A stretch of 64,000 bases of DNA. It comes from Candidatus Paraprochloron terpiosi LD05. GTDB taxonomy: Bacteria > Cyanobacteriota > Cyanobacteriia > Cyanobacteriales > Prochloraceae. The number at the start of each line of letters is the position of its first letter. Position 1 is the stretch's first letter. The stretch is taken from positions 633,251 through 697,250 of the forward strand of contig CP073341.1 of assembly GCA_018141785.1 (NCBI GenBank), given 5' to 3'. Positions 2,954 to 59,700 of this stretch are shown here, piece after piece. The notes under the pieces are model-generated. The model searched no databases and was not told where the DNA came from. It was given only the letters and a program-made list of their open reading frames with translations. The position numbers and the translations under genes are program-made.

Positions 2954-5491
2954 ATTAGAGTCGAGGGAGATGTTGCCACCTCGCCCCTCTCCTACGAACT
3001 GTACGTGAGACTTTCACCTCATACAGCTCAGGTGCTGTCTATGCCTTTACGGCGCGCTTCGCGAGTCCGTCTTTAATGCGTTTCCGGTGTACCGTTTGCG
3101 CCTGATGACATTCTCGGTGGAGAGCAACCAGATTTTTACATCTCCAGTTGTTATGGTTACCATCTATGTGGTGCAACTCCACGGCTCCATCTATCTCCAT
3201 GAACTTACGATTGCAATGCGGACATACATTCTTCTGTCGCCTGAGGGCTTCAGCGGTTGGTCCATCATATAATTTGGAATTTCGACCGACCCAATAGGAG
3301 ATATTCCCATCGTAGGGTGAGGCACCACCTTCAACCATCGCGTGGCTATTGACTTTCCAGGGAACTGCTGGGAGAGCTTTCTTAATCTGCTCTGATGTGA
3401 GCGCGCGAGGCGCGCTCCTAAGGGTTTACCCTTAGTTGCCAGACGTCTTGCTTTCTCAGCTTCCTTTTGAGCCATCCTGCGTTTTTCTGCTCGAAGGTTT
3501 GCGCCATAACCATATCCGCAGTGACCATAGGGCGTGTTTACTCATATCGCAGTGCTTGTGATATTGCCTCCAACCTCGGACTTGCGACTCTATCCTTTTC
3601 AGGCGAGCCTTCGTGGTTGTGCCATTTCTCCAAGTGGCCTTTACCTTAGCCTTTATGTCCGCATAATTCTCGGAACTCGGTGTGGATTTGAAGACTCCAC
3701 GGGAATTGACACGAAAGCGCCACCCCAGGAAATCGAACCCGTCCGTAGCTTTACTCACCTTAGTCTTAGTTTCATTGATTTTTAGCCCGGAAGACTCCAG
3801 GAATTTGTCTATATCTTTCCGTAACCGCTGGATGTCAGATTCGGGTTTACAGATAAAGACCGCGTCGTCTGCGTAACGAATGCCCCTTATACCTTCTGAC
3901 CATCTGTAGTACTTTTGACCGGACTTTTTCCCGCTTTTGTGGGTGTATTCTGTCCTGACCTTCTGGTCATTTCCTAGATTCTCGAATCCATCTAGGGCGA
4001 TATTGGCCAGTAGTGGCGAGATAACCCCGCCTTGGGGCGTACCCTTAATACTGGAGGGGTATTCACCACGAACGCCAGCTTTTATTGCTATCTTGAGTCC
4101 CCTTAAGGCTTCGGTTGGTAAGACTACTTTCTTGAGCATGACCTGGTGGTCTATCTCATCGAAACATTTGCTGATGTCTGTTTCCAGTATTAGCTTATTC
4201 TTACCATTTGCCTGGCTGTTTAGATTCTGGGAGATTAGCCTTTGTGCGTCCGCAGTACAGCGTCCGGGTCTGAAGCCGTAGCTTCTTTCTCCGGCAGTCG
4301 CCTCGTAGGCAGGCTCTGCTGCTAACTTAAGCAATGCTTGCCATGCCCGGTCGGCTATCGTTGGAATGCCTAATCCCCTTGTTTTGCCGTTTGGCTTGGG
4401 GATATTTACCCTTCTCAGTTGCTGGTGTTTCCAGTGGTGCCAGTGCTTGTTGAGCCTTTGACACAACACTAGACGCTCTCTGGTAGAAAGCGCTGTTTTG
4501 CCATCAACTCCGGGGGACTTACGCCCTGTGTTTAACTGTGTTACTTGTTTGACGGCCAGTGCTTGGGCAGCACGACTCTGTAATAGGAGCCGTTGTAAAC
4601 GTTTGACCTTGGCTTTTTGACCGTTCTTTTGCGCTTTAAAGATTGCCCGCTGTAATCGAAATACCTGCCGTTGGAATTTCTTCCATGGCAAGTCCTTCCA
4701 GACATCGTCAGCCCTCCGGCCAATCTTCCCCGCCAGCAGGAATACTGCTAGGTGGAGCCTCAAGGCTTTTAGACTGCGGTATTCGATTGGAGTCTGGTTA
4801 GTGATATTCACAGTTTGACCTCATTAGTCGCTCTGATAATTACATTGGGTCTCTTCTCTGTAGAAACCATCGGGCAGTTACGCCCTCTCTTACCCTCGCT
4901 CTTCCGTTAGGCCGTTAATCAAGCGACCCCACCACTCCTGCTCCTGCGCAGCCGCGCCTGAGCAGGCATTGTTGGGATTGGACTCCCCTGTTTCCGTGGA
5001 AGTTAAGCGAGTTTTTACTCGTTCCGAACGAACTATTGTTACGAACCCTTGGGACTCATCCATTGACCTATCACCAACTCAGGAATGTAAGTAGTGTTAC
5101 TTGCCCTTACGAGTCTCTTTCGGTGTCTTTTCTGCTCTCTAGCGGCTTGGCAGTGTTCTTGATTAGGTCTTTTCTTAGATGATTCACGTTAAGTTATCCC
5201 GGTGTTCTTCCTGTTAGCGGCTTTACCATCGAACCGCTCGATAGCTCCGGTTCCGCCCTGCTGCCAGCTTCAGCCTGATGATTAATCTCACTGTGGCCAG
5301 GTAAGGTTTCACGTGATTCCTTCACGGGAGAGACTTTCACTCTCATAGTTCATTCAGTTATCAAGGTTCAGCTGGTCAGGAGTTGTTTCAGCCTGTTTCC
5401 GGGCTTAGATTTCAGCTCCAGTTTGTCTAGAACCCTGCCCTAGCTTCGTTCGGATTACTCCGCGACTTTACTTGCTAGGAACGAGCCGCAC
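2954..5491 (-). mobile_element. Group II intron 1 (family A, IIB-like), intergenic
   Basis: 5' GTGCGGCTCGTT; D5 GAGCTGTATGAGGTGAAAGTCTCACGTACAGTTC; 3' CTCTAAT; the empty site GCCTTCGGT|AGTAACCC is present at 1021-1037. Confidence 0.95.
3039..4811 (-). pseudogene. Intron-encoded RT/maturase/HNH, frameshifted after the RT domain
   Basis: PQGGVISP and YADD in 3456-4811; the X/HNH parts lie in other frames (3191-3475, 3039-3338). Confidence 0.9.
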
Positions 5492-5537
5492 AGTAACCCA
5501 CAAGTTGGCCAAATTAGCAATCTGGAAATTTGTACCT

Positions 5538-6214
5538 ATGAAAAAACAACTGATTATAACTATGGCCATGGCTGCCTCTCTCCTCCATGGAGGCCCTGTT
5601 CATGCTGTTACTAATAATATCATCCAGCCAGATATTGTTGAGACAACCTTCGATCCTTTAATCTCTGTTGAGAATTTCCTAACAGAGGAAACAAATAATA
5701 TAAATAACATTATAAATCAATTGGACAGCCCCAGATGTCTCTTTCCAGGCTTGGATGATAATTTTAATCAGGCGATAAGTTGTTATTTTATAAGTGATGA
5801 AAGTTCTTCTCTCAGCGACGAAATCATAACTTTTACCTTTAATAATGTCGTCACCATCAAAAGCTTCCTGCTTTGGAATGGAGCTATAAATCAAGGCATA
5901 AATCAATTTGAGTTATTCTTAGATAATAACTCAAATTTTAGTGATAATATCATAACTAAACTTAGTAGTAAGACAACTTTTATGGACAACAAATTACATC
6001 ATTGAATATTCCCCTTCAGAGATTTTCTTTCTCCGCCGTTTCAACTCAATATGTTCACCTAAGGATTCTCAGTAATCATGATGATGCTCATAATCATATC
6101 AGTATTACGGAAATAGCCTTTGAAGAAGTACCTTTTGAAATTAGTCCCATACCAGGAATTACTTTCCTCCTGGTAATCGCCACAATCGCACGGTTGCGTC
6201 ATTACTCCCACTAG
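5538..6214 (+). pseudogene. Paralog of the PFE-CTERM secreted protein, frameshifted near 6000
   Basis: Same signal peptide and C-terminal tail as 1076-1775; two overlapping frames. Confidence 0.65.
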
Positions 6215-6222
6215 CTAGAATC

Positions 6223-6603
6223 TTACCATCCGGGCTGAAGGCTAAACTCCAGACAGTACCGGAATGTCCTGCCTAAACCGCCCAACTTAGGCACTTCCTC
6301 AACACAAATCTCTGCTGCGGAAGCTTCTTGACTAAAAGCTCTTTCTCGCAACCGCAACCACTCTTTTAATACTCCCAAACCCCCTACATGCTCCGGTGTT
6401 TCTTGTTGGGTGTAAAACTCCAGCGATCGACTCTCCCGAATAATTTGCTTTTTCTCCTCCATGACTAAGTCGATATCCCGATCATCTAACACTCCGTTAC
6501 TCACGATCGCCTTTGCAAATACTCGTTGTCCTTGGGATGCCGTCAAACCCAAAGCAGATTGTACCAGTTTTTCTTTTCCTAAGGCAGTGAGGTTAAACTT
6601 CAC
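6223..6603 (-). pseudogene. Internal fragment of a Ycf46-like AAA ATPase
   Basis: EEKKQIIRESRSLEFY..VGGLGVLKEWL motif; breaks at the duplication boundary (~6316) before Walker A. Confidence 0.65.
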
Positions 6604-6626
6604 CCCTGGTGTTTTTCCTAACTTGT

Positions 6627-7232: not shown

Positions 7233-7686
7233 CTACTTCTAGTTAATCCAAACTGTTCTTCAGAAGCAAAGAATGCCTTTAACTGCTAGCCTAACGGCCT
7301 TGAGGCTAGCGGTGCGACACCATCTTTCGGGTAGTACCGATCGCCCCTGTCTCCCAGAGCATCTGCTACGGTGAATGGTGTGCGATTCGTTGAGCGGGTC
7401 GAAGGAGTATATTGCTATACTCCAACTCCCTGTCGTTAAACACTTAGATTGTGCAGAGGCTACATTTCCCTAGCGGGAGTTTATATGTAATGATGCTTAT
7501 TATTAAGCCACTTTCCCTCCCAACCAATCGCCCCACTTGTACAAATTTCCCCCATTGTAAATCCCAATCACCCCATTTGTCAAGACAATCCCAGATGAGT
7601 TAACATAAATTTACAATATCAAATCGAATGGTAGGGGCACCTTGAGGAAGGCTGCCCTGCCCTATAAGACCCAGGAGGCTCAAAGC

Positions 7687-25134: not shown

Positions 25135-25207
25135 GCGCTCTTAGTTCAGTTGGTAGAACGCTGGTCTCCAAAACCAGATGTCAGGGGTTCGAGTCCTCTA
25201 GAGCGCG
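25135..25207 (+). tRNA. trnW: tRNA-Trp(CCA)
   Basis: GCGCTCT/AGAGCGC acceptor stem, anticodon arm CTGGT-CTCCAAA-ACCAG, GTTCGA T-loop. Confidence 0.96.
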
Positions 25208-27392: not shown

Positions 27393-27439
27393 GGATAATT
27401 TTGATACAATTTGCCAACAACAATCAAAAACCAACAATC

Positions 27440-27550
27440 AACCCAAGACAGCAGGTGCCAAAAGCTTAATTTCCTGCCGAGGTGGATACCAATACTCCCA
27501 TAGTCAACCATGGGAGGCGAGTAAAACCCCGGCGAAATGCTAGGGGTTTA
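27440..27550 (+). promoter_or_regulatory. Ribosomal protein L10 leader RNA
   Basis: CCAAGACAGCAGG..CTTAA..CCTGCCGAGG consensus upstream of rplJ. Confidence 0.75.
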
Positions 27551-27589
27551 ATTTTGTCTGCGCTCCCCCAAAAGGAGGTGAGAAGAGAA

Positions 27590-28663: not shown

Positions 28664-31600
28664 TCATTCCCTAAAGAACGTCCCATTCACTTGCAATAAT
28701 CGTCCTGTCCTAGAATCTTGGAATCCGGGACTCAGGTGATATAAAGCAAACCCCATTTCTTTGAGTTTATTTAACATCTCCTCAAAGAGCATTTGTCCCT
28801 CATAAAGAGGAACAATAGAGAGTTCTAAGTGAATTCCCTTGATTTTCGAGATAATCTCATTTGCTCCTTTGAGAACTTGCTCCTCATAACCTTGGGTATC
28901 TATCTTGAGCAAAATTCCTGCCATACCATCCATATATTGAGCTGCTGCATCTGAAAGCTTCATCAATTAGAGTCGAGGGAGACGTTACCGCCTCGCCCCT
29001 CTCCTACGAACTGTACATGAGACTTTCACCTCATACAGCTCAGGTGCTTCTATACCTTTACGGCGCGCTTTACGAGTCCGTCTTTAATGCGCTTGCGGTG
29101 TATCGCTTGCGCCTGGTGACATTCCCGATGGAGAGCAACTAAATTCTTACGTTTCCAGTTGTTATGGTTGCCGTCAATGTGGTGCAACTCCACGACACCA
29201 TCCATCTCCATGAACTTACGGTTGCAATGCGGACACTTACCCTTCTGTCGTTTAATGGCTTTGGCGGTTGGCCCACTATATAGATTGGAATTCCGGCCAA
29301 CCCAATAGGGAATATTCCCATCGTAGGGTGAGGCATCACCTTTGACCATTACGTGGCCATTGACTTTCCAGGGAATTGCAGGGAAAGCTTTCTTAATCTG
29401 CTCTGATGTGAGCTGGCGTTTAGCCGCTCCTAAGGGTTTACCCTTGGTAGCCAGACGTCTTGCTTTCTCTGCTTCCTTAATTGCCATCCTGCGTTTTTCT
29501 GCTCTTAGTTTGCGCCATAACCATATCCGCAGTGACCATAGGGCGTGTTTATTCATATCGCAGCTTTTATGGTATTGCCTCCAACCTCGGACTTGTGACT
29601 CAATCCTTTTTAGGCGAGCTTCCGTGGTTGCACCATTTCTCCAAGTGGCTTTAACCTTGGCCTTTATGTCCGCATAATTCTCGGAGCTCGGTGTGGACTT
29701 AAAGACTCCACGGGAATTGACACGAAAGCGCCACCCCAGGAAATCGAATCCTTCCGTAGCTTTACTCACCTTAGTCTTGGTTTCGTTAATTCGTAGCCCT
29801 CTGGACTTTAGAAATTCGTCGATATCTTCCCGTAGCTTCTTGGTGTCGGCTCCGGGTTTACAGATAAAGACCGCATCATCTGCGTAACGTATACCCCTTA
29901 TGAGAGTGCCATCTCGGCGTCTCTTTTTCCATTGGTCAGACCCTAGGTTCTCGAATCCATCTAGGGCGATATTGGCCAGTAGGGGTGAGATAACCCCGCC
30001 TTGGGGGGTACCCTTCATACTGGAGGGATATTCACCACGAACGCCTGCTTTTACAGCTCTCTTTAATCCCTTTAAGGCTTCGATTGGTAGGACTACTCCA
30101 TCGAGCATGACCTGGTGGTCAATTTCGTCAAAGCACTTACTGATGTCTGTTTCCAGTATCAGCTTGTCCTTGCCGTTACACGTCTTCTTAAGTTGGTCAA
30201 AGATGAGCTTTTGTGCGTCCGCAGTACAGCGACCGGGTCGGAAGCCGTAGCTTCTTTCTCCGGCAGTTGCCTCGTAAGCTGGCTCGGCTGCTAACTTTAG
30301 TAGTGCCTGCCACGCCCTGTCAGCTATTGTTGGGATGCCTAATCCACGAGTTTTGCCGTTAGGCTTGGGGATATTTACCCTTCTCAGTTGTTGGTGTTTC
30401 CAGTGGTACCAGTGCTTATTCAGCCTTTGGCATAACACTAGACGCTCATTGGTAGAAAGCGCTGTTTTTCCATCAACTCCGGGGGACTTACGCCCTGTGT
30501 TCAGCTGTGTTACTTGTTTGACGGCCAGAGCTTGAGCTGCACGACTCTGTAATAGGAGCCGTTGTAAACGTTTGACTTTGGCTTTGTGCTTGTCCTTTTG
30601 CGCTTTGAAGATACACCGCTGTAACCGAAATACCTGACCTCGGAATCTCTTCCATGGCACGTCTTTCCAGACATCGTCAGCCCTCCGGCCAATCTTCCCC
30701 GCCAGCAGGAATGCTGCTAAGTGGAGCCTCAAGGCTTTTAGACTGCGGTATTCGATTGAAGTCGGGTTAGTGATATTCACAATTTGACCTCGTTAGTCGC
30801 TCTGATAATTACGTTGGGTATCTTCTCTGTAGAAACCATCGGGCAGTTACGCCCTCTCTTACCCTCGCTTTTCCGATAGGCCGTTAATCAGGCGACCCCA
30901 CCACTCCTGCTCCTGCGCACACGGCAGTCAGGCATTGTTGGGTTTGGAACCCCCTGTTTCCGTGGAAGTTGAGCGAGTTTTTACTCGTTCCGAATGAACT
31001 ATTGTTACGAACCCTTGGGAACTCATCCATTGACCTATCACCAACTCAGGAATGTAAGTGCTTTGTAGTTGCCTTACGAGTTTCTTTCGGTGTTTCTTCT
31101 GTCGTAGGTAACGGTCTTCCGACAGTGTCGAAACTTAGGTCTTTTCTCAGATGATTCACGTTAAGTTATCCCGGTGTTCTCCCTGTTAGCGGAAGTGTCT
31201 CTGCCTAACCGTTTGGCCGCACTTTACCGCCCTGCTGCCAGCTTCAGCCTGATGATTAATCTCACTGTGGCCAGGTAAGGATTCACATGATTCCTTCATG
31301 GGAGAGGCTTGGTTGCACAATTTCTGACTGTGTCCTCACTCTCATAGTTCATTCAGTTGTCAAGGTTCGGTAATCCTGGATAAGAATCGTTTATCCGTTT
31401 TCAGCCCCTTTCGTTGGCTTAGATTATCGGAGACGGTGTCCCGGAACCTTGCTCCTGTTTATGTTTGGCTTACGCCGCGACCTTCACAGGAAACGAGCCG
31501 CACCCTTAACTGTTTCTGAATCAACATAGGTTGAATTCGGTTCAGCATCTATATGGGCCTGTAACATGGGTAAAATAGAACTACTGTGGGAATTCTTGGC

Positions 31601-32157: not shown

Positions 32158-34738
32158 ATTAGAGTCGAGGGGGATGTTACCACCCCGCCCCTCTCCTACG
32201 AACTGTACGTGAGACTTTCACCTCATACAGCTCAGGTGCTTCTATACCTTTACGGCGCGCTTTACGAGTCCGTCTTTAATGCGCTTGCGGTGTATCGCTT
32301 GCGCCTGGTGACATTCCCGATGGAGAGCAACTAAATTCTTACGTTTCCAGTTGTTATGGTTGCCGTCAATGTGGTGCAACTCCACGGCACCATCCATCTC
32401 CATGAACGGTCGGTTGCAATGCTGACACTTACCCTTCTGTCGCTTAATGGCGTCAGCGGTTGGGCCACTGTATAATTTGGAGTTCCGACCAACCCAATAG
32501 GAAACATTCCCATCGTAGGGTGAGGCATTACCTTTGACCATTACGTGACGGTTCACTTCCCCAGAAACTGATGGGAACGCCTTATCCACCTGCATTTTCG
32601 TTAGCTGGCGTTTTGCTGCTCCCTTCTTCATCACCTTGCCTTTGATGGCTTGGCGACGAGCTTTTTCGGCTTCCTTTTTGGCCATTTTGCGTTTGTCTGC
32701 TCTTAGTTTGTGCCATAACCAATGGCTCAGTGACCATAGGGCGTGTTTCGACATATCGCAGTGTTTATGGTAATTCCTCCAGCCTCGGACTTGTGACTCT
32801 ATCCTTTTCAGGCGAGCATCCGTGGTTGTTCCGTTTTTCCAAGTGGCTTTAACCTTGGCCTTTATGTCTGCATAATTCTCCCAACTCGGTGTGGATTTGA
32901 AGACTCCACGGGAATTGACACGGAAGCGCCACCCCAGAAAGTCGAATCCATCCGTAGCTCTACTCACCTTAGTCTTAGCTTCGTTAATTTGTAGCCCTCT
33001 GGACTTTAAGAATTCGTCGATATCTTCCCGTAGTTTCCTGGTATCGGCTCCGGGTTTACAGATAAAGACCGCGTCATCTGCGTAACGTATACCCCTTATT
33101 AACGGTCTTCGCCGTTCTCTTTTCCATTGGTCTGTCCCTAGGTTCTCGAATCCATCTAGGGCAATATTGGCCAGTAATGGTGATATGACACCACCTTGGG
33201 GAGTACCCTTTGTACTGGAGGGGTATTCACCACGAACGCCTGCTTTTACAGCTTTCTTTAACCCTTTTAAAGCTTCGATTGGTAGGACTACTCCATCGAG
33301 CATGACCTTGTGGTCAATTTCGTCAAAGCATTTACTGATATCTGTTTCCAGAATCAGCTTGTCTTTACCATTTGCATTGCTTTTGAGATTGCTAAAGATG
33401 AGCTTTTGTGCGTCCGCAGTACAGCGACCGGGTCGGAAGCCGTAGCTTCTTTCTCCGGCAGTTGCCTCGTAGGCAGGCTCGGCTGCTAACTTGAGCAGCG
33501 CTTGCCACGCCCGGTCGGCTATTGTGGGGATGCCTAATCCACGAGTTTTGCCGTTTGGCTTCGGGATGTTTACCCTTCTCAGTTGTTGGTGTTTCCAGTG
33601 GTACCAGTGCTTGTTCAGCTTTTGGCAGAGTGTCAGACGCTCCTTGGTAGAAAGCGCGGTTTTGCCATCAACTCCGGGGGACTTACGCCCTGTGTTTAAC
33701 TGTGTTACTTGTTTGACGGCCAGTGCTTGGGCTGCACGACTCCGAAGTAGGAGCCGTTGTAAACGTTTGACCTTAGCTTTTGATTGTTCTTTTTGCGCTT
33801 TGAAGATACCCCGCTGTAACCGAAATACTTGCCGCCGGAATTGCTTCCATGGCAGGTCTTTCCAGACGTCGTCAGCCTTCCGACCTATCCTCCCCACCAT
33901 TAGCAGGACTGCTAAGTGGAGTCTCAAGGCTTTCAGGCTGCGGTATTCGGTTGAAGTCTGGTTAGTGATGTTCACAGTTTTGACCTCGTCAGTCACTCTG
34001 ATAGTTACATTGGGTCTCTTCTCTGTAGAAACCATCGGGCAGTTACGCCCTCTCTTACCCTCACCCTTCCGATAGGCCGTTAATCAGGCGACCCCACCAC
34101 TCCTGCTCCTGCGCACACGGCAGTCAGGCATTGTTGGGTTTGGAACCCCCTGTTTCCGTGGAAGTTGAGCGAGTTTTTACTCGTTGGGAACGAACTATTG
34201 TTACGAACCCTTGGGACTCATCCATTGACCTATCACCAACTCAGGAATGTAAGTGCTTGAAATTTGCCTTACGAGTTTCTTTCGGTGTTTCTTCTGTCGT
34301 AGGTAACGGTCTTCCGACAGTGTCGGATGTTAGGTCAATTCTTCAGATGATTCACGTTAAGTTATCCCGGTGTTCTCCCTGTTAGCGGAAGTATCTCTGC
34401 CTAACCGTTTGGCCGCACTTTACCGCCCTGCTGCCAGCTTCAGCCTGATGATTAATCTCACTGTGGCCAGATAAGGATTCACGTGATTCCCCTGCTCCTG
34501 CGCAGCCGCGCCTGAGCAGGCGGGAGAGACTTGGTTGCACGATTTCTAACCGTGGCCTCACTCTCATAGTTCATTCAGTTGTCCAGGTTCGGTAACCCCC
34601 GGCATCGCGGATGGCGAGGGAACGTTTTTCCGTTTTCAGCCCCTTTCAGGACTTATATGCTCGGAGACGCTGTCCCTAAAACCCTGCTCCTGCTTATGTT
34701 TGGCTTACGCCGCGACTTTCACAGGAAACGAGCCGCAC
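32158..34738 (-). mobile_element. Group II intron 3 (family A), in the ankyrin gene
   Basis: GTGCG...CTCTAAT ends; nearly identical to the intron at 51223-53777. Confidence 0.95.
32242..34035 (-). CDS. Intron-encoded RT/maturase/HNH endonuclease
   Basis: YADD and HNH motifs. Confidence 0.95.
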   Translation of the reverse strand: MVSTEKRPNVTIRVTDEVKTVNITNQTSTEYRSLKALRLHLAVLLMVGRIGRKADDVWKDLPWKQFRRQVFRLQRGIFKAQKEQSKAKVKRLQRLLLRSRAAQALAVKQVTQLNTGRKSPGVDGKTALSTKERLTLCQKLNKHWYHWKHQQLRRVNIPKPNGKTRGLGIPTIADRAWQALLKLAAEPAYEATAGERSYGFRPGRCTADAQKLIFSNLKSNANGKDKLILETDISKCFDEIDHKVMLDGVVLPIEALKGLKKAVKAGVRGEYPSSTKGTPQGGVISPLLANIALDGFENLGTDQWKRERRRPLIRGIRYADDAVFICKPGADTRKLREDIDEFLKSRGLQINEAKTKVSRATDGFDFLGWRFRVNSRGVFKSTPSWENYADIKAKVKATWKNGTTTDARLKRIESQVRGWRNYHKHCDMSKHALWSLSHWLWHKLRADKRKMAKKEAEKARRQAIKGKVMKKGAAKRQLTKMQVDKAFPSVSGEVNRHVMVKGNASPYDGNVSYWVGRNSKLYSGPTADAIKRQKGKCQHCNRPFMEMDGAVELHHIDGNHNNWKRKNLVALHRECHQAQAIHRKRIKDGLVKRAVKV

Positions 34739-40914: not shown

Positions 40915-43596
<2,682 letters not shown>

Positions 43597-43754: not shown

Positions 43755-46173
43755 GTCGGGTAAGGTTCAGGAATCGCTTCCTTCCCCTCCCCTAAGAACC
43801 GGACGTGACAGTTTCCTATCATCCGGCTCAAGCCTCACTTCAAGCCCTACTTGCTTGGATTTCTTGGAATGCACCTGCTTGTGACATGCTGTGTGCAAGT
43901 GCTGAAGATTGTCGCACTCATCTGAACCTCCATCCTTCACAGGTGCTATGTGATGGGTTTGAATTTCCTCACCGTTGAAGAGGTGCTCATGGCAGATTGG
44001 GCATTTCCAGTTCTGGTTGATGGCTATTTTCTCATATTTTGAGTTTTTAGCCCACCATTTTTTTCCAGACTGCGTTCGCCGCTTTGACCAATATTCCACC
44101 TGTTCGGGGTCGTCTGGGGAATAAGCTCCCTTAACTTTGATATGTCTTTCAATCGGGACACTTTTTATATTATACAAATCGTGTATTATTCTTTTGCCCC
44201 TCCGGTCTTTGCCTTCGTAGAAAAACACCCAATTTCTTTTGCCCCTTGTTCGGAAGTACTTTCCTTTGACCCATTTTCGTGATTTTTTGGGGTGTCGTCT
44301 TTTTGCCCAACGCCAGAGGTACCACCATACTCGGTTGTGTATATATGAAAAGGTTTCTTTGCTACATACTCCTCTGTAGTAATTCGCAAAACCTCTGAGA
44401 AGTGGTTCTATCTTACGGATGACCTGTTCTGGGGTTTTTGTTTTCATGCTGTCGATGGTTGCACCGACTTTCTTGCAGAGCTCTAATACCTTCGACTTCT
44501 GTGGCTTAATGATTAGTTTATCCCGTAGGATTCCATCATTTCCTTTAACCTCATAATGCCGTAGGTTAAACCCCAGGAAATCAAATCCGTCTCTTATATG
44601 TACTATCCGCGTCTTCTCATCACTAATCTCAAGACCTCGTTCTGACAGCCATTGATTTATCTGGATTTTCAATTCCTCCAAGGATTCCTTGTCCTTTGCA
44701 GTGACTACGAAATCGTCTGCATACCTGATGACGCCTACCTTTGGGTTACATTTGTTGATATATGTTTCTAACCCGTGGAGTCCGATATTTGCTAACAAAG
44801 GACTTATTACGCCACCCTGTGGAGTTCCTTTTTCAGTTGGGCTATATCCCTTCTTACTCTCGATAGATCCAGCTTTTAACCATCCATCAACCAAGGTATT
44901 TTCCCTGACTGCTGTCTGGATGGATTTATGGTCAATGTTGTCAAAGAAGCCTTTGATATCAGCGTCCAAAACCCATTTATCGTGCTTTCGCCATGTTCCG
45001 GTCTTCGTTTTATAGTCGCCGCGTAGTCTACTGAAACATTGTCCAATAGCATCTAGGCAACTTCGACCGGGTCTGAAGCCATAGGAGTTAGCTTCAAACT
45101 TGGCCTCCCATTCGGGTTCCAGTGCATTTTTGACTATTGCCTGAGCGACTCTATCTCTGATGGTTGGGATTCCAAGAGGACGTTTCTTACCATTCGCTTT
45201 AGGAATGTATACCCGTCTGGCAGGTTTTGCCTTGGGCATTTCCCAGTTATTGGCAAGTTTCACACGCTGTGCTGGGGTGTCTATGACCTCCTTATCTACC
45301 CCCGCTGTTCGTTTTCCGGTATTTACCTGTGTGATTTGTCTGATGCTCAGTAATAGGTTCGACCGACATCTTTTCATCAGTTTCTGTAAAGACAGTAATC
45401 GTCTCCACAGTCCAAGCTTTTGGGCACGAAATATCCGACCGCGTAAATTCCTAACAATCTTCTTTGTGCGACGCCAGTTAATGTCGCCCCACTCGGTAGA
45501 TTGTCCGTTCAGTCCATTTGCCAGAATTTCTTCCGTCATCTAACTTTTCCGTTCGTTTGGTTTCTAGTTGTCTTCAATTTTCGTATGAGACCCAAGTGAA
45601 GTCTGCTATTCCTTTCGGTCAGGGACAAATCTTGAATCCCTATCTCTCTCATTACAAGGGAGCATTCGCTTTTTCACTCATCCTTTACCCTCCAAGGAAT
45701 TCCGTCGCCGTTACCTTTGACCTACTAAGAAGAATCGACCCTTTCTTAGACCTTGTAGGGCTTATCCTGTTGTTTCGCTTAGTTTTCTTAACTGGTTAGG
45801 CTGGTTCCTATCCCCCGGCAGAGCTTTGGTTCCCCGAGCTGATAAATTTGCAGTATCAGTTCCTGTCTGCTTGCCATTTTGGCTAAGGCGCAGGAATAAT
45901 TTCGCCTTTCGTGGTTTACGAGGTTTAAACGGAGGGATTCGTTGATGGCGAATCCTTTTACTTCACTTTCGTTCAGCCTTCCAGCTATTTCCCTCTTGCT
46001 CCTCACCCTTTAATCCTAAGAGCTTCGGCTACTTTCGGGGTCTGCATTCCAGCGGTTTTATTACTTACTCCCGCCGTGACCGGACTCGTAGAGTCTTTTC
46101 CGTGAGGGCTAGGGGTGGAACTCCCTAGAGGACTCGATGTCCCGTACTAAGCGACCATTGTCAGGTCGCGCAC
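43755..46173 (-). mobile_element. Group II intron (family B, unrelated to family A)
   Basis: 5' GTGCGCGACC; D5 GAGCCGGATGATAGGAAACTGTCACGTCCGGTTC; 3' CCCGAC. Confidence 0.9.
43767..45539 (-). CDS. Intron-encoded RT/maturase/HNH endonuclease
   Basis: YADD, GFANYY, CPIC..HH....GG....NL...H..CH; the ORF runs into D5/D6. Confidence 0.94.
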   Translation of the reverse strand: MTEEILANGLNGQSTEWGDINWRRTKKIVRNLRGRIFRAQKLGLWRRLLSLQKLMKRCRSNLLLSIRQITQVNTGKRTAGVDKEVIDTPAQRVKLANNWEMPKAKPARRVYIPKANGKKRPLGIPTIRDRVAQAIVKNALEPEWEAKFEANSYGFRPGRSCLDAIGQCFSRLRGDYKTKTGTWRKHDKWVLDADIKGFFDNIDHKSIQTAVRENTLVDGWLKAGSIESKKGYSPTEKGTPQGGVISPLLANIGLHGLETYINKCNPKVGVIRYADDFVVTAKDKESLEELKIQINQWLSERGLEISDEKTRIVHIRDGFDFLGFNLRHYEVKGNDGILRDKLIIKPQKSKVLELCKKVGATIDSMKTKTPEQVIRKIEPLLRGFANYYRGVCSKETFSYIHNRVWWYLWRWAKRRHPKKSRKWVKGKYFRTRGKRNWVFFYEGKDRRGKRIIHDLYNIKSVPIERHIKVKGAYSPDDPEQVEYWSKRRTQSGKKWWAKNSKYEKIAINQNWKCPICHEHLFNGEEIQTHHIAPVKDGGSDECDNLQHLHTACHKQVHSKKSKQVGLEVRLEPDDRKLSRPVLRGGEGSDS

Positions 46174-46290
46174 AAATGAACCCCATTTGTGTAAAATGAT
46201 GATCGAAGGTAAAAACTTCCCTAATTCCTCTTTGTTTCATAACGACGTAGGAAACACAGTCGGTAAAAGACCAAAATAACCCCAAAGTTT
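46174..46290 (-). pseudogene. C-terminal fragment of a PIN/VapC toxin
   Basis: WSFTDCVSYVVMKQRGIREVFTFDHHFTQMGF. Confidence 0.7.
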
Positions 46291-46871
46291 TGTTCAAAAG
46301 CGAGAATAAGCATATCTAGTTGTTCGAAAGTTGCTTTTATTTGTGCAGCTAAACGCAATTTTCGCCAGTCAATGTCGGAACTTTTATACACGATATCGTG
46401 GGTTGAAACTAACCATGCGTGTTCAAAAGCACTTTGGATTTGAATTTCAAAGATTATTTTATAAATGCTTAATTCATTATCTGGAACTATATCCTCATTA
46501 TTTCTGAGTTGAGCGTAAATTCTAGTTGAGTCAAATCTAAATATGTCAGGAGATTTTTGATTTTGTCCTCTTTTTACTATACGGGTAATCTTAAATGCTT
46601 TTTGGCAAAATTCTTTAACTACTTTTTCGTGAGATAAAGTAGGTATTATCACTGTACAAGCAAATAAATCATCTAAATCTGACCATTTTGCAAATCTTCC
46701 TGTTTCAATTTTTTCAGCCAAAGATTCAATAGTTTTGATGCGAGAAATAAACGCATATTTTGGTCGATCCTCACAAAACTTGGATAGTGTTTGCTTGACT
46801 TTTTTCGCAACCTTTTCAACCAAAGGTTTATATTCGTCATATTTGCGCTTTAGTACAGATGGATAAAGCAT
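46221..46871 (-). CDS. RelA/SpoT-domain (small alarmone synthetase-like) protein, probably 3'-truncated
   Basis: RIKTIESLAEK, DDLFACT and FEIQIQSAFEHAW..HDIVYK motifs. Confidence 0.7.
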   Translation of the reverse strand: MLYPSVLKRKYDEYKPLVEKVAKKVKQTLSKFCEDRPKYAFISRIKTIESLAEKIETGRFAKWSDLDDLFACTVIIPTLSHEKVVKEFCQKAFKITRIVKRGQNQKSPDIFRFDSTRIYAQLRNNEDIVPDNELSIYKIIFEIQIQSAFEHAWLVSTHDIVYKSSDIDWRKLRLAAQIKATFEQLDMLILAFEQNFGVILVFYRLCFLRRYETKRN

Positions 46872-46875: not shown

Positions 46876-50568
<3,693 letters not shown>

Positions 50569-50708
50569 TGGTTTTCCTTAATTGGCTTGAGTTATTTATT
50601 TACTTCAATCTGATGGATAGAGGGCGGAGCAAGAAAAGATACGCTAATCTCATTATAGCAATTTCTGCCCCTCCGCGCCTATGTGCCTCTGCGTGAAACA
50701 TTATCCCA

Positions 50709-53700
50709 TTATAACACCTTTGGAAGCCCTACCTCTTTCGGTTCCACAAAATTACCATCAAAACCGATGGCCCTATCTTCGATAGTTCTCGCCTTAGCCA
50801 AATCTTTGAGCAAATTACCACGTTCCATATCATCTGATGTCCCGGCGACGAGATAGACCATTAATTTGGCGGCTAAATCCCGTCTCGAAGTCAGCACCCG
50901 CTTCTTATTAGGGTCGTAAAGCACCCCATACCACAGGGATTTGGGTTCGGACACGGACGCAAAACCTCCCCCTAAATCGTAGGTGCGTAATTTATCGAAA
51001 ATATCTGCTAATAACCTCTTTTTCTTAAATACCAAGATTCCCAAAGCTTGAGCTAAAGCAATTTGTCCTATGGGGCGGAAGAGAATATTTGCTTCTCCAC
51101 CAGGCTTCTCGTGACTGAAGCGACGCAGCATGGGGGTTTGGGTTCCTTGTTCCAACCGCTGGTAACTGGGCAGACTCCCTAAATGGTCCCATAACTCCTT
51201 AAAATCCGCCACTCCCTCTTCTATTAGAGTCGAGGGGGATGTTACCACCCCGCCCCTCTCCTACGAACTGTACGTGAGACTTTCACCTCATACAGCTCAG
51301 GTGCTTCTATACCTTTACGGCGCGCTTTACGAGTCCGTCTTTAATGCGCTTGCGGTGTATCGCTTGCGCCTGGTGACATTCCCGATGGAGAGCAACTAAA
51401 TTCTTACGTTTCCAGTTGTTATGGTTGCCGTCAATGTGGTGCAACTCCACGGCACCATCCATCTCCATGAACGGTCGGTTGCAATGCTGACACTTACCCT
51501 TCTGTCGCTTAATGGCGTCAGCGGTTGGGCCACTGTATAATTTGGAGTTCCGACCAACCCAATAGGAAACATTCCCATCGTAGGGTGAGGCATTACCTTT
51601 GACCATTACGTGACGGTTCACTTCCCCAGAAACTGATGGGAACGCCTTATCCACCTGCATTTTCGTTAGCTGGCGTTTTGCTGCTCCCTTCTTCATCACC
51701 TTGCCTTTGATGGCTTGGCGACGAGCTTTTTCGGCTTCCTTTTTGGCCATTTTGCGTTTGTCTGCTCTTAGTTTGTGCCATAACCAATGGCTCAGTGACC
51801 ATAGGGCGTGTTTCGACATATCGCAGTGTTTATGGTAATTCCTCCAGCCTCGGACTTGTGACTCTATCCTTTTCAGGCGAGCATCCGTGGTTGTTCCGTT
51901 TTTCCAAGTGGCTTTAACCTTGGCCTTTATGTCTGCATAATTCTCCCAACTCGGTGTGGATTTGAAGACTCCACGGGAATTGACACGGAAGCGCCACCCC
52001 AGAAAGTCGAATCCATCCGTAGCTCTACTCACCTTAGTCTTAGCTTCGTTAATTTGTAGCCCTCTGGACTTTAAGAATTCGTCGATATCTTCCCGTAGTT
52101 TCCTGGTATCGGCTCCGGGTTTACAGATAAAGACCGCGTCATCTGCGTAACGTATACCCCTTATTAACGGTCTTCGCCGTTCTCTTTTCCATTGGTCTGT
52201 CCCTAGGTTCTCGAATCCATCTAGGGCAATATTGGCCAGTAATGGTGATATGACACCACCTTGGGGAGTACCCTTTGTACTGGAGGGGTATTCACCACGA
52301 ACGCCTGCTTTTACAGCTTTCTTTAACCCTTTTAAAGCTTCGATTGGTAGGACTACTCCATCGAGCATGACCTTGTGGTCAATTTCGTCAAAGCATTTAC
52401 TGATATCTGTTTCCAGAATCAGCTTGTCTTTACCATTTGCATTGCTTTTGAGATTGCTAAAGATGAGCTTTTGTGCGTCCGCAGTACAGCGTCCGGGTCT
52501 GAAGCCGTAGCTTCTTTCTCCGGCAGTTGCCTCGTAGGCAGGCTCGGCTGCTAACTTAAGCAACGCTTGCCATGCCCTGTCGGCTATTGTCGGGATGCCT
52601 AATCCCCGTGTTTTGCCATTCGGCTTGGGGATATTTACCCTTCTCAGTTGTTGGTGTTTCCAGTGGTACCAGTGCTTGTTCAGCTTTTGGCAGAGTGTCA
52701 GACGCTCCTTGGTGGAGAGTGCTGTTTTACCGTCAACTCCAGGGGACTTACGCCCTGTGTTCAGCTGTGTTACTTGTTTGACGGCCAGAGCTTGGGCTGC
52801 ACGGCTTTGTAATAGGAGCCGTTGTAAACGTTTGACCTTGGCTTTTGATTGTTCTTTTTGCGCTTTGAAGATACCCCGCTGTAACCGAAATACTTGCCGC
52901 CGGAATTGCTTCCATGGCAGGTCTTTCCAGACGTCGTCAGCCTTCCGACCTATCCTCCCCACCATTAGCAGGACTGCTAAGTGGAGTCTCAAGGCTTTCA
53001 GGCTGCGGTATTCGGTTGAAGTCTGGTTAGTGATGTTCACAGTTTTGACCTCGTCAGTCACTCTGATAGTTACATTGGGTCTCTTCTCTGTAGAAACCAT
53101 CGGGCAGTTACGCCCTCTCTTACCCTCACCCTTCCGATAGGCCGTTAATCAGGCGACCCCACCACTCCTGCTCCTGCGCACACGGCAGTCAGGCATTGTT
53201 GGGTTTGGAACCCCCTGTTTCCGTGGAAGTTGAGCGAGTTTTTACTCGTTCCGAACGAACTATTGTTACGAACCCTTGGGACTCATCCATTGACCTATCA
53301 CCAACTCAGGAATGTAAGTGCTTGAAATTTGCCTTACGAGTTTCTTTCGGTGTTTCTTCTGTCGTAGGTAACGGTCTTCCGACAGTGTCGGATGTTAGGT
53401 CAATTCTTCAGATGATTCACGTTAAGTTATCCCGGTGTTCTCCCTGTTAGCGGAAGTATCTCTGCCTAACCGTTTGGCCGCACTTTACCGCCCTGCTGCC
53501 AGCTTCAGCCTGATGATTAATCTCACTGTGGCCAGATAAGGATTCACGTGATTCCTTCACGGGAGAGACTTGGTTGCACGATTTCTAACCGTGGCCTCAC
53601 TCTCATAGTTCATTCAGTTGTCCAGGTTCGGTAACCCCCGGCATCGCGGATGGCGAGGGAACGTTTTTCCGTTTTCAGCCCCTTTCAGGACTTATATGCT

Positions 53701-56700
53701 CGGAGACGCTGTCCCTAAAACCCTGCTCCTGCTTATGTTTGGCTTACGCCGCGACTTTCACAGGAAACGAGCCGCACATTTCATCATCCTCTGGGCGCAT
53801 GGGAATCAAACCCCTATCCTGGGATTTCCACGTGCAGAATGGGAATTCTAAATAGCGCTCACACATATCTTGGAGCGCCTGAAGAGTAGTCAGGACGGTA
53901 GATTTAGCGGCTACAGTGGCGCTATCGAAATTGACTCGATCCTCCCGTCCCTCCTTTTTCTTCAATAGAGGATGGGTGACGGCAATAGTACGGGCGACGA
54001 TGGCAAAACCATTATCTTCGTTCAGAGAAGCTAACTGTCCTTTGCTCAACCGCACTACTGTTAAATTGACGTGGACGAAGATGGAACGGACTCGGCGCCT
54101 TGCTTCTTCCCTAGTTTCCCCTGGAGCCACGGCGGGAATAAACTCAATGCCGATTTTTTCCTTGGCTAAATTTTGCAGATAACCTGATTGGATGTTGAAT
54201 CCTTCCTCCAGTTTTTCCATGGGAATGGGGGATCCTATGGTCTTCTTGCTTTTATTATATTTGGGCAACATGCCTGTTTTTAGCAGTATTAGAGTCGAGG
54301 GAGATGTTGCCACCTCGCCCCTCTCCTACGAACTGTACGTGAGACTTTCACCTCATACAGCTCAGATGCTTCTATGCCTTTATGGCGCGCTTGTCGAGTC
54401 CGTCCTTGATGCGCTTACTATGCACTTCTTGGTGACATTCCCGATGGAGAGCAACCAGATTCAAGCGAAACCAGTTGTTATGGTTGCCGTCAATGTGGTG
54501 CAACTCCACGACACCATCCATCTCCATGAACTTACGGTTGCAATGCGGACACTTACCCTTCTGTCGTTTAATGGCTTTGGCGGTTGGCCCACTATATAGA
54601 TTGGAATTCCGGCCAACCCAATAGGGAATATTCCCATCGTAGGGTGAGGCATCACCTTTGACCATTACGTGGCCATTGACTTTCCAGGGAATTGCAGGGA
54701 AAGCTTTCTTAATCTGCTCTGATGTGAGCTGGCGTTTAGCCGCTCCTAAGGGTTTACCCTTGGTAGCCAGACGTCTTGCTTTCTCTGCTTCCTTAATTGC
54801 CATCCTGCGTTTTTCTGCTCTTAGTTTGCGCCATAACCATATCCGCAGTGACCATAGGGCGTGTTTATTCATATCGCAGCTTTTATGGTATTGCCTCCAA
54901 CCTCGGACTTGTGACTCAATCCTTTTTAGGCGAGCTTCCGTGGTTGCACCATTTCTCCAAGTGGCTTTAACCTTGGCCTTTATGTCCGCATAATTCTCGG
55001 AGCTCGGTGTGGACTTAAAGACTCCACGGGAATTGACACGAAAGCGCCACCCCAGGAAATCGAATCCTTCCGTAGCTTTACTCACCTTAGTCTTGGTTTC
55101 GTTAATTCGTAGCCCTCTGGACTTTAGAAATTCGTCGATATCTTCCCGTAGCTTCTTGGTGTCGGCTCCGGGTTTACAGATAAAGACCGCATCATCTGCG
55201 TAACGTATACCCCTTATGAGAGTGCCATCTCGGCGTCTCTTTTTCCATTGGTCAGACCCTAGGTTCTCGAATCCATCTAGGGCGATATTGGCCAGTAGGG
55301 GTGAGATAACCCCGCCTTGGGGGGTACCCTTCATACTGGAGGGATATTCACCACGAACGCCTGCTTTTACAGCTCTCTTTAATCCCTTTAAGGCTTCGAT
55401 TGGTAGGACTACTCCATCGAGCATGACCTGGTGGTCAATTTCGTCAAAGCACTTACTGATGTCTGTTTCCAGTATCAGCTTGTCCTTGCCGTTACACGTC
55501 TTCTTAAGTTGGTCAAAGATGAGCTTTTGTGCGTCCGCAGTACAGCGACCGGGTCGGAAGCCGTAGCTTCTTTCTCCGGCAGTTGCCTCGTAAGCTGGCT
55601 CGGCTGCTAACTTTAGTAGTGCCTGCCACGCCCTGTCAGCTATTGTTGGGATGCCTAATCCACGAGTTTTGCCGTTAGGCTTGGGGATATTTACCCTTCT
55701 CAGTTGTTGGTGTTTCCAGTGGTACCAGTGCTTATTCAGCCTTTGGCATAACACTAGACGCTCATTGGTAGAAAGCGCTGTTTTTCCATCAACTCCGGGG
55801 GACTTACGCCCTGTGTTCAGCTGTGTTACTTGTTTGACGGCCAGAGCTTGAGCTGCACGACTCTGTAATAGGAGCCGTTGTAAACGTTTGACTTTGGCTT
55901 TGTGCTTGTCCTTTTGCGCTTTGAAGATACACCGCTGTAACCGAAATACCTGACCTCGGAATCTCTTCCATGGCACGTCTTTCCAGACATCGTCAGCCCT
56001 CCGGCCAATCTTCCCCGCCAGCAGGAATGCTGCTAAGTGGAGCCTCAAGGCTTTTAGACTGCGGTATTCGATTGAAGTCGGGTTAGTGATATTCACAATT
56101 TGACCTCGTTAGTCGCTCTGATAATTACGTTGGGTATCTTCTCTGTAGAAACCATCGGGCAGTTACGCCCTCTCTTACCCTCGCTTTTCCGATAGGCCGT
56201 TAATCAGGCGACCCCACCACTCCTGCTCCTGCGCACACGGCAGTCAGGCATTGTTGGGTTTGGAACCCCCTGTTTCCGTGGAAGTTGAGCGAGTTTTTAC
56301 TCGTTCCGAATGAACTATTGTTACGAACCCTTGGGAACTCATCCATTGACCTATCACCAACTCAGGAATGTAAGTGCTGATGGACTGGCCTTACGAGTTT
56401 CTTTCGGTGTCTCTTCTGTCGTCTGTAACGGTCTTCCGGCAGTGTCAGGTTTTAGGTCTTTTCGTCGATGATTCACATTAAGTTATCCCGGTGTTCTCCC
56501 TGTTAGCGGAAGTATCTCTGCCTAACCGTTGGCCGTACTTTACCGCCCTGTTGCCAGCTTCCGCCTGGTGATTAACCTCACGGTGGCCAGGTAAGGATTC
56601 ACGTGATTCCTTCACGGGAGAGGCTTGGTTGCACGATTTCTGACCGTGACCTCACTCTCATAGTTCATTCAGTTGTCAAGGTTCGGTAATCCTAGTTAGG

Positions 56701-59700
56701 AATCGTTTGTCCGTTTTCCGCCCCTTTCGGTGGCTTAGATTATCGGAGACGTTGTCCCGGAAACCCTGCTCCTGCTTATGTTTGGCTTACGCCGCGACCT
56801 TCACAGGAAACGAGCCGCACTCCATCAAACCTTGAATCCCCATGAGGCGATGCTGACCGTCTAGAGCGAAAATGGAGAATTTTTCATTAGAGTCGAGGGA
56901 GACGTTGCCGCCTCGCCCCTCTCCTACGAACTGTACGTGAGACTTTCACCTCATACAGCTCAGGTGCTTCTATGTCTTTACGACGCGCGAACGGAGTCCA
57001 TCCTTAATACGCTTACGATGCATCGCTTGCGCCTGGTGGCATTCCCGATGGAGAGCAACTAAATTCTTACGTTTCCAGTTGTTATGGTTACCATCTATGT
57101 GGTGCAATTCCACAGCACCATCCATCTCCATGAACAATCGATTGCAATGCTGACATTTGCCCTTCTGTCGCTTAATGGCATCAGCGGTTGGCCCACTATA
57201 TAGTTTGGAATTCCGGCCAACCCAATAGGAAATATTCCCATCGTAGGGTGAGGCATCACCTTTGACCATTACGTGGCCATTGACTTTCCAGGGAATTGCA
57301 GGGAAAGCTTTCTTAATCTGCTCTGATGTGAGCTGGCGTTTAGCCGCTCCTAAGGGTTTACCCTTGGTAGCCAGACGTCTTGCTTTCTCTGCTTCCTTAA
57401 TTGCCATCCTGCGTTTTTCAGCCCTCAGCTTACGCCAAACCCATTTATTGAGTGACCATAGCGAGTGCTTGTTCATGTCGCAGTTTGAGTGATATTGCCT
57501 CCAGCCTCGGACTTGTGACTCAATCCTTTTCAGGCGAGCTTCCGTGGTTGCACCATTTCTCCAAGTTGCTTTAACCTTGGCCTTTATGTCTGCATAATTC
57601 TCCCAACTCGGTGTGGATTTAAAGACTCCACGGGAATTGACACGGAAGCGCCACCCCAAAAAGTCAAATCCTTCCGTGGTTTTACTCACCTTAGTCTTAG
57701 CTTCGTTGATTCTTAGCCCTCTGGACTTTAAGAATTCGTCGATATCCTTCCTTAGCCTTTTGGTGTCGGCTTCGGGTTTACAGATAAAGACCGCGTCATC
57801 CGCGTAACGAATACCCCTTATGAGAGTGCCGTCCCGACGGCTCCTTTTCCATTGGTCTGACCCTAGGTTCTCGAATCCATCTAGGGCGATATTAGCCAGT
57901 AGTGGCGAGATGACCCCGCCTTGGGGTGTGCCCTTTATACTGGAGGGATATTCACCGCGAACGCCTGCTTTTACAGCCCACTTCAGACCCCTGATAGCCT
58001 CTTTTGGTAAGACCACTCCTTTGAGAATGACCTGGTGGTCGATTTCATCGAAGCATCTGCTGATGTCTGTTTCTAAAACCAGCTTGTTCTTACCGTTTGT
58101 CTGGCTGTTTAGATTCTGGAAGATTAGCTTTTGTGCGTCCGCAGTACAGCGACCGGGTCGGAAGCCGTAGCTTCTTTCTCCGGCAGTTGCCTCGTAGGCA
58201 GGCTCGGCTGCTAACTTGAGCAGCGCTTGCCACGCCCGGTCGGCTATTGTGGGGATGCCTAATCCACGAGTTTTGCCGTTTGGCTTCGGGATGTTTACCC
58301 TTCTCAGTTGTTGGTGTTTCCAGTGGTGCCAGTGCTTGTTGAGCCTTTGACACAGCACCAGACGCTCTCTGGTAGAAAGCGCGGTTTTGCCATCAACTCC
58401 GGGGGACTTACGCCCTGTGTTTAACTGTGTTACTTGTTTGACGGCCAGTGCTTGGGCTGCACGACTCCGAAGTAGGAGCCGTTGTAAACGTTTGACCTTA
58501 GCTTTTGATTGTTCTTTTTGCGCTTTGAAGATTCCCCGCTGTAACCGAAATACGTGCCGCCGGAATTGCTTCCATGGCAGGTCTTTCCAGACATCGTCAG
58601 CCCTCCGACCTATCTTCCCCGCCAGCAGGAATGCTGCTAGGTGGAGTCTTAAGGCTTTCAGACTGCGGTATTCGATTGGAGTCTGGTTAGTGATATTCAC
58701 AGTTTGACCTCATTAGTCGCTCTGATAATTACATTGGGTCTCTTCTCTGTAGAAACCATCGGGCAGTTACGCCCTCTCTTACCCTCGCCCTTCCGTTAGG
58801 TCGTTAATCAGGCGACCCCACCACTCCTGCTCCTGCGCAGCCGCGCCTGAGCAGGCATTGTTGGGTTTGGACTCCCCTGTTTCCGTGGAAGTTGAGCGAG
58901 TTTTTACTCGTTCCAAATGAACTATTATTTTGAACCCTTGGGACTCACCCGTTGACCCATCACCAACTCAGGAATGCAAGTGCTGTTTCTTGGCCTTGCG
59001 AGTTTCTTTCGGTGTCTTTTCTGCTCTCTAGCGGCTTGGCAGTGTTCTAGATTAGGTCTTTTTGTAGATGATTCACGTTAAGTTATCCCGGTGTTCTCCC
59101 TGTTAGCGGCTTTACCATCGAACCGCTCGATAGCTCCGGTTCCGCCCTGCTGCCAGCTTCAGCCTGATGATTAATCTCACTGTGGCCAGGTAAGGATTCA
59201 CGTGATTCCTTCACGGGAGGGACTTTCACCCTCATAGTTCATTCAGTTATCAAGGTTCAGCTGGTCAGGAACTGTTTCAGCCTGTTACCGGGCTTAGATT
59301 GCAGCTCCAGTTTGTCTAGAACCCTGCCCTAGCTTCGTTCGCCCGGCATCCTCGATGGCGGGCGCGACTTTACTTGCTAGGAACGAGCCGCACCGAAACA
59401 TCTAGTAGTCCCACAGTTTCGTTTTGGTCTAGAGGGTCAAAATTGGCAGCCAATTTTGAGCAGCGTCCCTCCTCATCCCACTCCAGAGCCTGGGGATCAT
59501 CTACCCACTTGGGGCTGATCACTGCTAGGATGGCGGGAAACTTATGGAATTTGCGGGCGGCGAGATACTGGGCTAGAACTGCTTGCCGGGACCAATCTAG
59601 GGGACGCTGTAGCATTTCTTCCACCGTTTCCCCATCTTTGATGAGGTTGTTGGTTCCTGAGTCTAATTTTTGCCGAAACAGGGGCAACTGGGAAGCAAAA

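Follow-up and report, generated by a model that had tools for sequence, protein, structure and literature searches.

A group II intron family with diverse guide sequences matched to its own insertion sites in Candidatus Paraprochloron terpiosi LD05

How do closely related introns come to occupy sites of different sequence within a single genome? This question is raised by a 64,000-nucleotide (nt) stretch of Candidatus Paraprochloron terpiosi LD05 (assembly GCA_018141785.1, contig CP073341.1, forward-strand positions 633,251 to 697,250), hereafter the window, which carries seven copies of one group II intron family (A to G) and a single intron of another family (X). Copies A to G are very probably one mobile intron of group IIB type (chloroplast-like, or CL, class), made up of a ribozyme, a reverse transcriptase (RT)-maturase-HNH gene in domain IV, and three guides in domain I, the exon-binding sequences EBS1, EBS2 and EBS3. 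Pairing of these guides with the exons would serve both splicing from RNA and reverse splicing into DNA, and hence the guides would determine both the sites that a copy can occupy and those to which it can move. An earlier note on this DNA had proposed that two short variable loops of domain I behave as EBS1 and EBS2, that six different guide sets are present, and that most of them match their own insertion site.

To score the pairing, EBS2 (5 nt) was placed against exon positions -12 to -8, EBS1 (6 nt) against -6 to -1, and EBS3 (1 nt) against +1. When the guides and sites of the seven copies were compared in a 7 × 7 table, own guides formed 64 of 77 Watson-Crick pairs with own sites. The permutation mean was 28.1 (standard deviation (sd) 8.2), and 64 was reached by 2 of 5040 permutations, these being the identity and the swap of C and E. 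Fits in this fixed register are 11/11 for D, E and F, each with EBS3 paired as well; 10/11 for G, where there is an A.G mismatch at -1 and the C of EBS3 pairs with G at +1; 9/11 for C; 7/11 for A; and 5/11 for B. The nine motifs on which the earlier note relied are all present on the plus strand: AGAAGA (50114) and ATGAC (50182) in D, TGAAAT (53323) and GGATG (53390) in E, GATGGA (56379) and AGGTT (56447) in F, GTTTCT (58985) and CTAGA (59047) in G, and GTTACT (5096) in A. They equal the last bases of the corresponding 5' exons, namely ATGACcAGAAGA for D, GGATGaTGAAAT for E, AGGTTtGATGGA for F, CTAGAtGTTTCG for G (apart from the mismatch at -1) and GTTACT for A. The count of six guide sets also held, although it is now spread over seven copies, C and E having the same sequence in each of the two loops; EBS3 had been missed, as had copies B and C. 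Intron boundaries were set by pairwise BLAST together with end motifs, and the introns are as follows.

Intron A, 2954-5491, minus strand: 2538 nt; EBS2 5158-5162, EBS1 5096-5101, EBS3 5062; open reading frame (ORF) truncated.
Intron B, 28966-31503, minus strand: 2538 nt; EBS2 31130-31134, EBS1 31063-31068, EBS3 31029; within a 253-codon open frame.
Intron C, 32158-34738, minus strand: 2581 nt; EBS2 34325-34329, EBS1 34258-34263, EBS3 34224; in the acidic tail of a 172-codon frame.
Intron D, 47953-50556, minus strand: 2604 nt; EBS2 50182-50186, EBS1 50114-50119, EBS3 50080; after codon 4 of a DUF262/GmrSD_N gene.
Intron E, 51223-53777, minus strand: 2555 nt; EBS2 53390-53394, EBS1 53323-53328, EBS3 53289; third intron of a dndB-like gene.
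Intron F, 54288-56820, minus strand: 2533 nt; EBS2 56447-56451, EBS1 56379-56384, EBS3 56345; second intron of the dndB-like gene.
Intron G, 56886-59393, minus strand: 2508 nt; EBS2 59047-59051, EBS1 58985-58990, EBS3 58951; first intron of the dndB-like gene.
Intron X, 43755-46173, minus strand: other family; strong HNH match (33.5 bits).

All eight introns give Rfam group II domain-5/6 matches on the minus strand, with RF00029 scores of 59.4-61.3 bits (gathering score 40). The seven family copies share the 5' end GTGCGGCTCGTT and the 3' end CTCGACTCTAAT, and hence all have GTGCG...AAT ends, where a GUGYG 5' end and an AY 3' end were sought. Intron X lies upstream of an apcE-like ORF of 889 amino acids (40915-43584); it has four near-identical genome copies, each preceded by a flank ending in ATTT.

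Structural work covered the ID subdomain, for which 58 distinct copies were aligned and an RNAalifold consensus was obtained. The five EBS2 and six EBS1 columns show the highest entropy in an otherwise almost invariant subdomain. EBS1 forms the terminal loop of a hairpin whose stem carries compensatory changes (UA 47/CG 11, GC 39/AU 8/UA 2, CG 24/UA 10/GC 8), and EBS2 is an unpaired strand ~60 nt upstream of EBS1, directly 5' of a covarying hairpin (CG 29/UA 27). The folded subdomain thus bears out the assignment of the two loops to EBS1 and EBS2. A further column (position 489 of intron E, in the context GGTCAA[T]GG) has 0.92 bit of mutual information with exon position +1, compared to 0.34 for the runner-up column, and is Watson-Crick complementary to that position in 45 of 58 copies and in 6 of the 7 in the window. 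The existence of this separate EBS3, rather than a position adjoining EBS1, marks the family as IIB-like on the basis of the alignment. Pairing of the IIA delta type was considered and discarded, mutual information being at most 0.28 for the columns that adjoin EBS1.

The window is part of a far larger population. In the source genome (G000), a single contig of 3.84 Mb, Infernal gave at least 150 RF00029 matches above the cut-off (150 of 495 candidates scored) and nhmmer gave 158 domain-5/6 matches, or roughly one domain-5 match in every 25 kb. Sequence with ≥75% identity to X or to the main family amounts to 290,717 bases, which puts the intron share of the genome at 7.57% or more. Genome-wide, 75 copies could be parsed (5' end, EBS2 and EBS1 loop), and these carry 53 guide sets. 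Own guides and sites form 658 of 803 Watson-Crick pairs; shuffling the sites gave a mean of 336 (sd 11.9) and a maximum of 376, and 658 was reached in none of 2000 shuffles. EBS1 pairs at ≥5/6 and EBS2 at ≥4/5 in 43 of 73 distinct copy/site combinations, with 12 of the 73 perfect. Some of these introns are tandem or nested (G000:C1:3208271 and 3330900), and the 5' flank of some copies consists of the final bases of another intron.

We also searched the three other genomes of the genus (G001, G002 and G003, of which G002 is only 71% complete) and found the family in all of them; at the DNA level, none of the 27 other genomes of the order that were searched had a match, and for proteins from outside the genus, identity to the best relatives does not exceed 53%. 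G003 carries other guide sets, which likewise pair with the flanks of their own copies (EBS1 at 6/6 for loci L023, L037 and L038, for instance), such that the covariation of EBS with the intron-binding sequences (IBS1 and IBS2) of the exon is seen in the window, genome-wide and in a second genome of the genus. One G003 guide set occupies five sites, with EBS1 matches of 3-4/6 where scorable. Tandem or nested introns occur there as well (L007/L029 and L024), and one G003 copy lies within an intron of the X family.

Comparison of pairs among the 58 copies relates guide change to divergence of domain I. In the 17 closest pairs (divergence ≤0.017), the guides are all identical and the sites are all non-identical, most of them imperfect. 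Introns C and E exemplify such a pair: they are 97.7% identical over 2602 nt and share their guides, but C lies between GGATGaTGAAGA and A and E between GGATGaTGAAAT and A, and the host gene of C is unrelated to that of E, although the stretch encoded at its site is similarly acidic. The share of guide positions that differ is 54.5% at 2-5% divergence (18 pairs) and 67-78% beyond 5%, the latter being near random. Judged from these alignments, guide turnover is far faster than that of the ribozyme core.

The copies are mosaics, clearly so for one pair. Introns B and F show no difference between positions 443 and 2350, a tract of 1908 nt that takes in the entire ORF core, yet all 11 guide positions differ; their 67 differences fall in positions 46-442 (41) and 2351-2516 (26). 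This pattern probably reflects gene conversion between copies 25 kb apart. Between E and C, 27 of 35 differences lie inside intron positions 938-1286, a cluster that looks like a converted patch within the ORF. In a multiple alignment analyzed under a uniform-rate model, improbably long identical tracts were found in 66 of 1315 pairs, 65 of them between copies with different guides. The P values for these tracts assume uniform rates, and conserved parts of the ribozyme inflate the figure of 66/1315; the 1908-nt tract shared by B and F is independent of that assumption. We conclude that recent moves appear to be near-cognate insertions in which the guides are unchanged, and that gene conversion, as read from the shared tracts, uncouples the ORF from the guides.

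The protein encoded by the family was examined in intron E, whose ORF matches the Pfam families RVT_N (96.9 bits), RVT_1 (111.5 bits) and GIIM (37 bits), all above the cut-off. The closest solved chain is 6me0_C (E=4.2e-84, residues 41-581), which we take to be the TeI4h protein of the Thermosynechococcus family, the title of the entry being silent on identity. Of the 75 parsed copies, 15 have an intact-looking ORF, another 38 reach full length but carry a broken one, 5 are short, 9 exceed 2.8 kb (nested or misjoined) and 8 have no 3' end within 7 kb. All 15 intact-looking ORFs contain YADD and keep the endonuclease (En) motif CxxC...HH...N...H..CH, consistent with the RT-HNH protein proposed in the earlier note. 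Six of the 15 are in the window, where only copy A is truncated (its protein has RVT_N, RVT_1 and partial GIIM matches and no HNH match). The earlier statement that nearly all copies keep their ORF is hence correct for the window (6/7) but not for the genome (15/75). Three ORF-deleted copies of 1.34 kb carry one guide set at three different sites, and one pair of copies has the same 214-codon remnant at two sites, which suggests that such copies receive help in trans.

Joining the exons in silico gives open frames of 533 codons (introns G, F and E removed), 365 codons (D), 172 codons (C) and 253 codons (B), and thus restores a frame for six of the seven family copies. No sense frame spans the junction of intron A, which runs antisense to a low-complexity plus-strand frame (276 codons, no stops) and may disrupt a gene from which splicing cannot remove it. 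Among 58 copies, 33 are in the sense and 11 in the antisense orientation within long open frames, and an excess of sense insertions is what selection for removal by splicing would predict. The genes that house introns D to G, and two genes given for context only, are listed below.

dndB-like (DGQHR) gene, 50709-59888, minus strand: four exons (59394-59888, 56821-56885, 53778-54287, 50709-51222).
DUF262/GmrSD_N gene, 46876-50568, minus strand: exon 1 50557-50568 (12 nt), exon 2 46876-47952.
dndC, 60040-61641, plus strand: PADLOC DndC E=2.1e-195; divergent from the dndB-like gene; context only.
dndD, 61710-63725, plus strand: PADLOC DndD E=4.1e-215 / PbeC E=3.1e-259; divergent from the dndB-like gene; context only.

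The dndB-like gene, ~1.6 kb, holds three related introns with three different guide sets, and once spliced it reads without interruption from a start codon at 59888 as far as a stop codon at 50709-50711. The DGQHR motif is encoded within the 65-nt exon (56821-56885, minus strand) between introns G and F. The DUF262/GmrSD_N gene matches Pfam GmrSD_N (67.4 bits) and PADLOC NsnA (E=1.2e-34), and its start codon ATG lies within the IBS2 of intron D. After it comes an ORF with a RelA_SpoT domain (46221-46871, minus strand; 34.2 bits; PADLOC PDC-S33, E=1.5e-6). By these domain and profile matches, the host genes of D to G sit in a DNA-modification/defence neighbourhood. The earlier note had placed the best guide-target fits in defence genes; this is so in the window, where D to G hold those fits, while the perfect fits of the whole genome are not defence-specific. 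Other features of the window are a tRNA gene (25135-25207, plus strand) and a ribosomal protein L10 leader (27424-27561, plus strand).

Comparison with congeners reveals uninterrupted versions of the dndB-like gene. Once spliced, it is colinear with an intron-free G003 gene of 528 amino acids (91.7% over 1549 nt), which matches Pfam DndB at 56.1 bits (cut-off 29.1), and with an intron-free G001 gene (75.5%); in G002, identity is 96.3% over the part on the contig. All three intron sites of the gene are empty in G003, where the F target is identical, and the E site is empty in G002 with an identical 12-base target. Conversely, the G003 intron sites that have a G000 counterpart are empty there (3/3). 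These reciprocal empty sites indicate that the two genomes were colonised independently. When DNA contigs from four runs were compared with 50557-59900, exon 3 with both of its intron junctions was present in all four (53750-54303 or 53750-54314). No empty-site joints are listed for the contigs of these four runs, which may include the source of the assembly; the joints listed are cross-matches between copies. Among RNA runs, none was found to contain the locus.

Positions other than the guides also show a bias. Enriched at the sites are A at -13 (54/73), T at -7 (43/73) and A at +2 (39/67), and the site logo suggests that these positions may be read by the protein. In the apcE-like ORF, an empty site at ~40943 (genome position 674193, minus strand), GGATGaTGAAAT followed by T, matches EBS1 and EBS2 of intron E perfectly and mismatches its EBS3.

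How might guides and sites have come to correspond? By analogy with known group II biology, the introns would spread by reverse splicing and target-primed reverse transcription. Recent moves would leave the guides unaltered and end at near-cognate sites. In the longer term, change would be much faster at the 12 guide positions than in the core, with the guides keeping their match to the resident site. Gene conversion between copies would reshuffle the ORF module independently of the guide segment, and the few intact copies would supply proteins that carry those with broken or deleted ORFs. For this order of events, we see the chances as evenly balanced. We infer from the sequences that retargeting by guide change occurs naturally in this family.

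A number of observations weigh against the overall interpretation. Introns B, A and C pair poorly or only partly with their own sites. B has the worst fit in the window, with EBS1 at 3/6 and EBS3 mismatched, and its IBS2 match of 5/5 is obtained only when one base out of register; in A, EBS1 pairs at 6/6 but EBS2 pairs at 4/5 only after a 1-nt shift. Searches of intron E with the Rfam D1-D4 models returned no match even at E values up to 1, so the class and structure given above are derived from alignments. The HNH match of the intron E ORF, at 18.3 bits, is below the Pfam cut-off of 21.4. Several sites with 11/11 matches to IBS1 and IBS2 are unoccupied, one of them inside apcE; occupancy is not decided by guides alone. 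The contrast between guide and core rates is confounded by purifying selection on the core and by the mosaic copies. Finally, copies with unique guide sets show no better fit to their sites than do members of multi-copy sets (9.17 versus 9.39 of 11; Mann-Whitney p=0.50), which gives no support for guides adapting after insertion.

A rival account is the route proposed for Thermosynechococcus, in which an EBS mutation in a resident copy comes before retrohoming to a well-matched new site, such that guide sets are born matched. This model is in print (passages of PMC2882425), and fresh retrohoming would give just what is seen at D, E and F, with fits of 11/11 at sites that are empty in congeners; likewise, about 8 of the 18 multi-copy guide sets have one perfect and one imperfect member. 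A donor is harder to find. Thirty-five guide sets occur only once in the genome, which leaves them without a second copy as a possible source, and the guide contexts of E and F are absent elsewhere in G000-G003 apart from C (with G002 71% complete). Also contrary to the model, the 17 youngest pairs share guides at different and mostly imperfect sites, and the G003 guide set found at five sites matches them poorly with EBS1. We consider this route a serious contender, though one that we are inclined to doubt.

The diversity could instead have been imported, with differently targeted introns entering horizontally, alone or with host genes, and no diversification in the lineage. Such a history would account for a family that is found in all three other genomes of the genus and whose G000 and G003 sites are reciprocally empty, so that the copies were not inherited in place. 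We judge it very unlikely, given the lack of DNA-level matches in the other order genomes searched, the distance of protein relatives outside the genus, and the long identical tracts shared by copies with different guides, which must then coexist and recombine in one genome. That the matches are a by-product of chance or composition is scarcely credible. Motifs of 5-6 nt do recur often, and EBS1 cross-comparisons reach 5-6/6 in 245 of 5190 cases, but the observed genome-wide total is ~27 sd above the shuffle mean with no shuffle near it, the window score is matched by almost no permutation, and the result is replicated in G003.

Elements of this system are familiar from other introns. Trichodesmium erythraeum has bacterial genes with multiple introns, and the dndB-like gene resembles these in that one protein-coding gene contains several group II introns; unlike them, it has three introns with three guide sets within 1.6 kb and an exon of only 65 nt left between two of them. 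The Ll.LtrB targetron is retargeted in the laboratory by rewriting its EBS loops. The same is done with the EcI5 targetron, for which passages of PMC2882425 describe target choice as depending on EBS-IBS pairing together with a small number of positions that the protein recognises. Here, by contrast, we infer retargeting in nature, and what the fixed positions do is guessed from the site logo.

The closest parallel is the TeI3/TeI4 family of Thermosynechococcus elongatus, with 28 copies, six EBS families and CL/IIB1 class according to passages of Mohr, Ghanem and Lambowitz 2010 (PMC2882425); that EBS diversification is known from Thermosynechococcus, as the earlier note had said, is correct. 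Judged by those passages, the two families share a ribozyme of CL/IIB type, probable for the family studied here, that uses EBS1, EBS2 and EBS3, numerous close relatives within a single cyanobacterial genome, EBS families fitted to their respective sites alongside some copies with a poor fit, ORF-less or degenerate copies, and insertions into other introns. They differ in scale: here, domain-5 matches number at least 150, and the 75 parsed copies alone account for 53 guide sets. They also differ in what the youngest copies look like: the TeI3/TeI4 paper, in these passages, argues for retrohoming after EBS divergence, whereas here the youngest copies share guides at different, imperfect sites. 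Here, copies whose guides differ share long identical tracts, a sign of gene conversion, which the PMC2882425 passages do not describe. No thermophily is known for the organism studied here. A second parallel is the expansion of CL-type introns in another cyanobacterium, Arthrospira platensis, reported in passages of Miura et al. 2022 (PMC8919778), a paper that never uses the word 'EBS'. Its survey maximum was 101 introns per genome, compared to at least 150 RF00029 or 158 nhmmer matches in 3.84 Mb here, which places this intron load among the highest reported for a bacterium. The 'highest count' and 'six families' comparisons may be affected by the supplementary tables of PMC8919778 (top 25 genomes) and of PMC2882425. 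For a related sponge symbiont, passages of PMC9298193 give 50 RNA-directed DNA polymerase genes, and the word 'intron' occurs there 0 times. Our literature search yielded no publication that describes the family or the diversity of its guides. The principle of EBS diversification is therefore known and the scale is unusual; the family is a very large addition to the Thermosynechococcus kind.

The family, of interest to intron specialists, offers a natural data set on how far 12 bases can re-aim one group II ribozyme and what else its sites need. This question is usually studied with engineered targetrons; here, 53 guide sets and their sites are available in one genome, with more in a congener. 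The named relatives of this lineage are symbionts of animals, and its heavy intron load bears on ideas of intron spread under relaxed selection. Judging from the mosaic copies, gene conversion may keep a small number of protein genes alive as guides diverge. A bolder view, which we offer tentatively and think rather unlikely, is that the genome holds a library of >50 working guide/target pairs on one IIB scaffold, in a family that is still active and evolves as modules: the guide segment would be tied to its site, gene conversion would spread and repair the ORF, protein recognition would be minimal (A at -13, T at -7 and A at +2), and a host-restricted life would have allowed such an intron density, together with the multi-intron genes and the 65-nt exon. 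Were this so, an active modular library in a host-restricted lineage would serve as a living model of how introns spread early on in the ancestors of eukaryotes.

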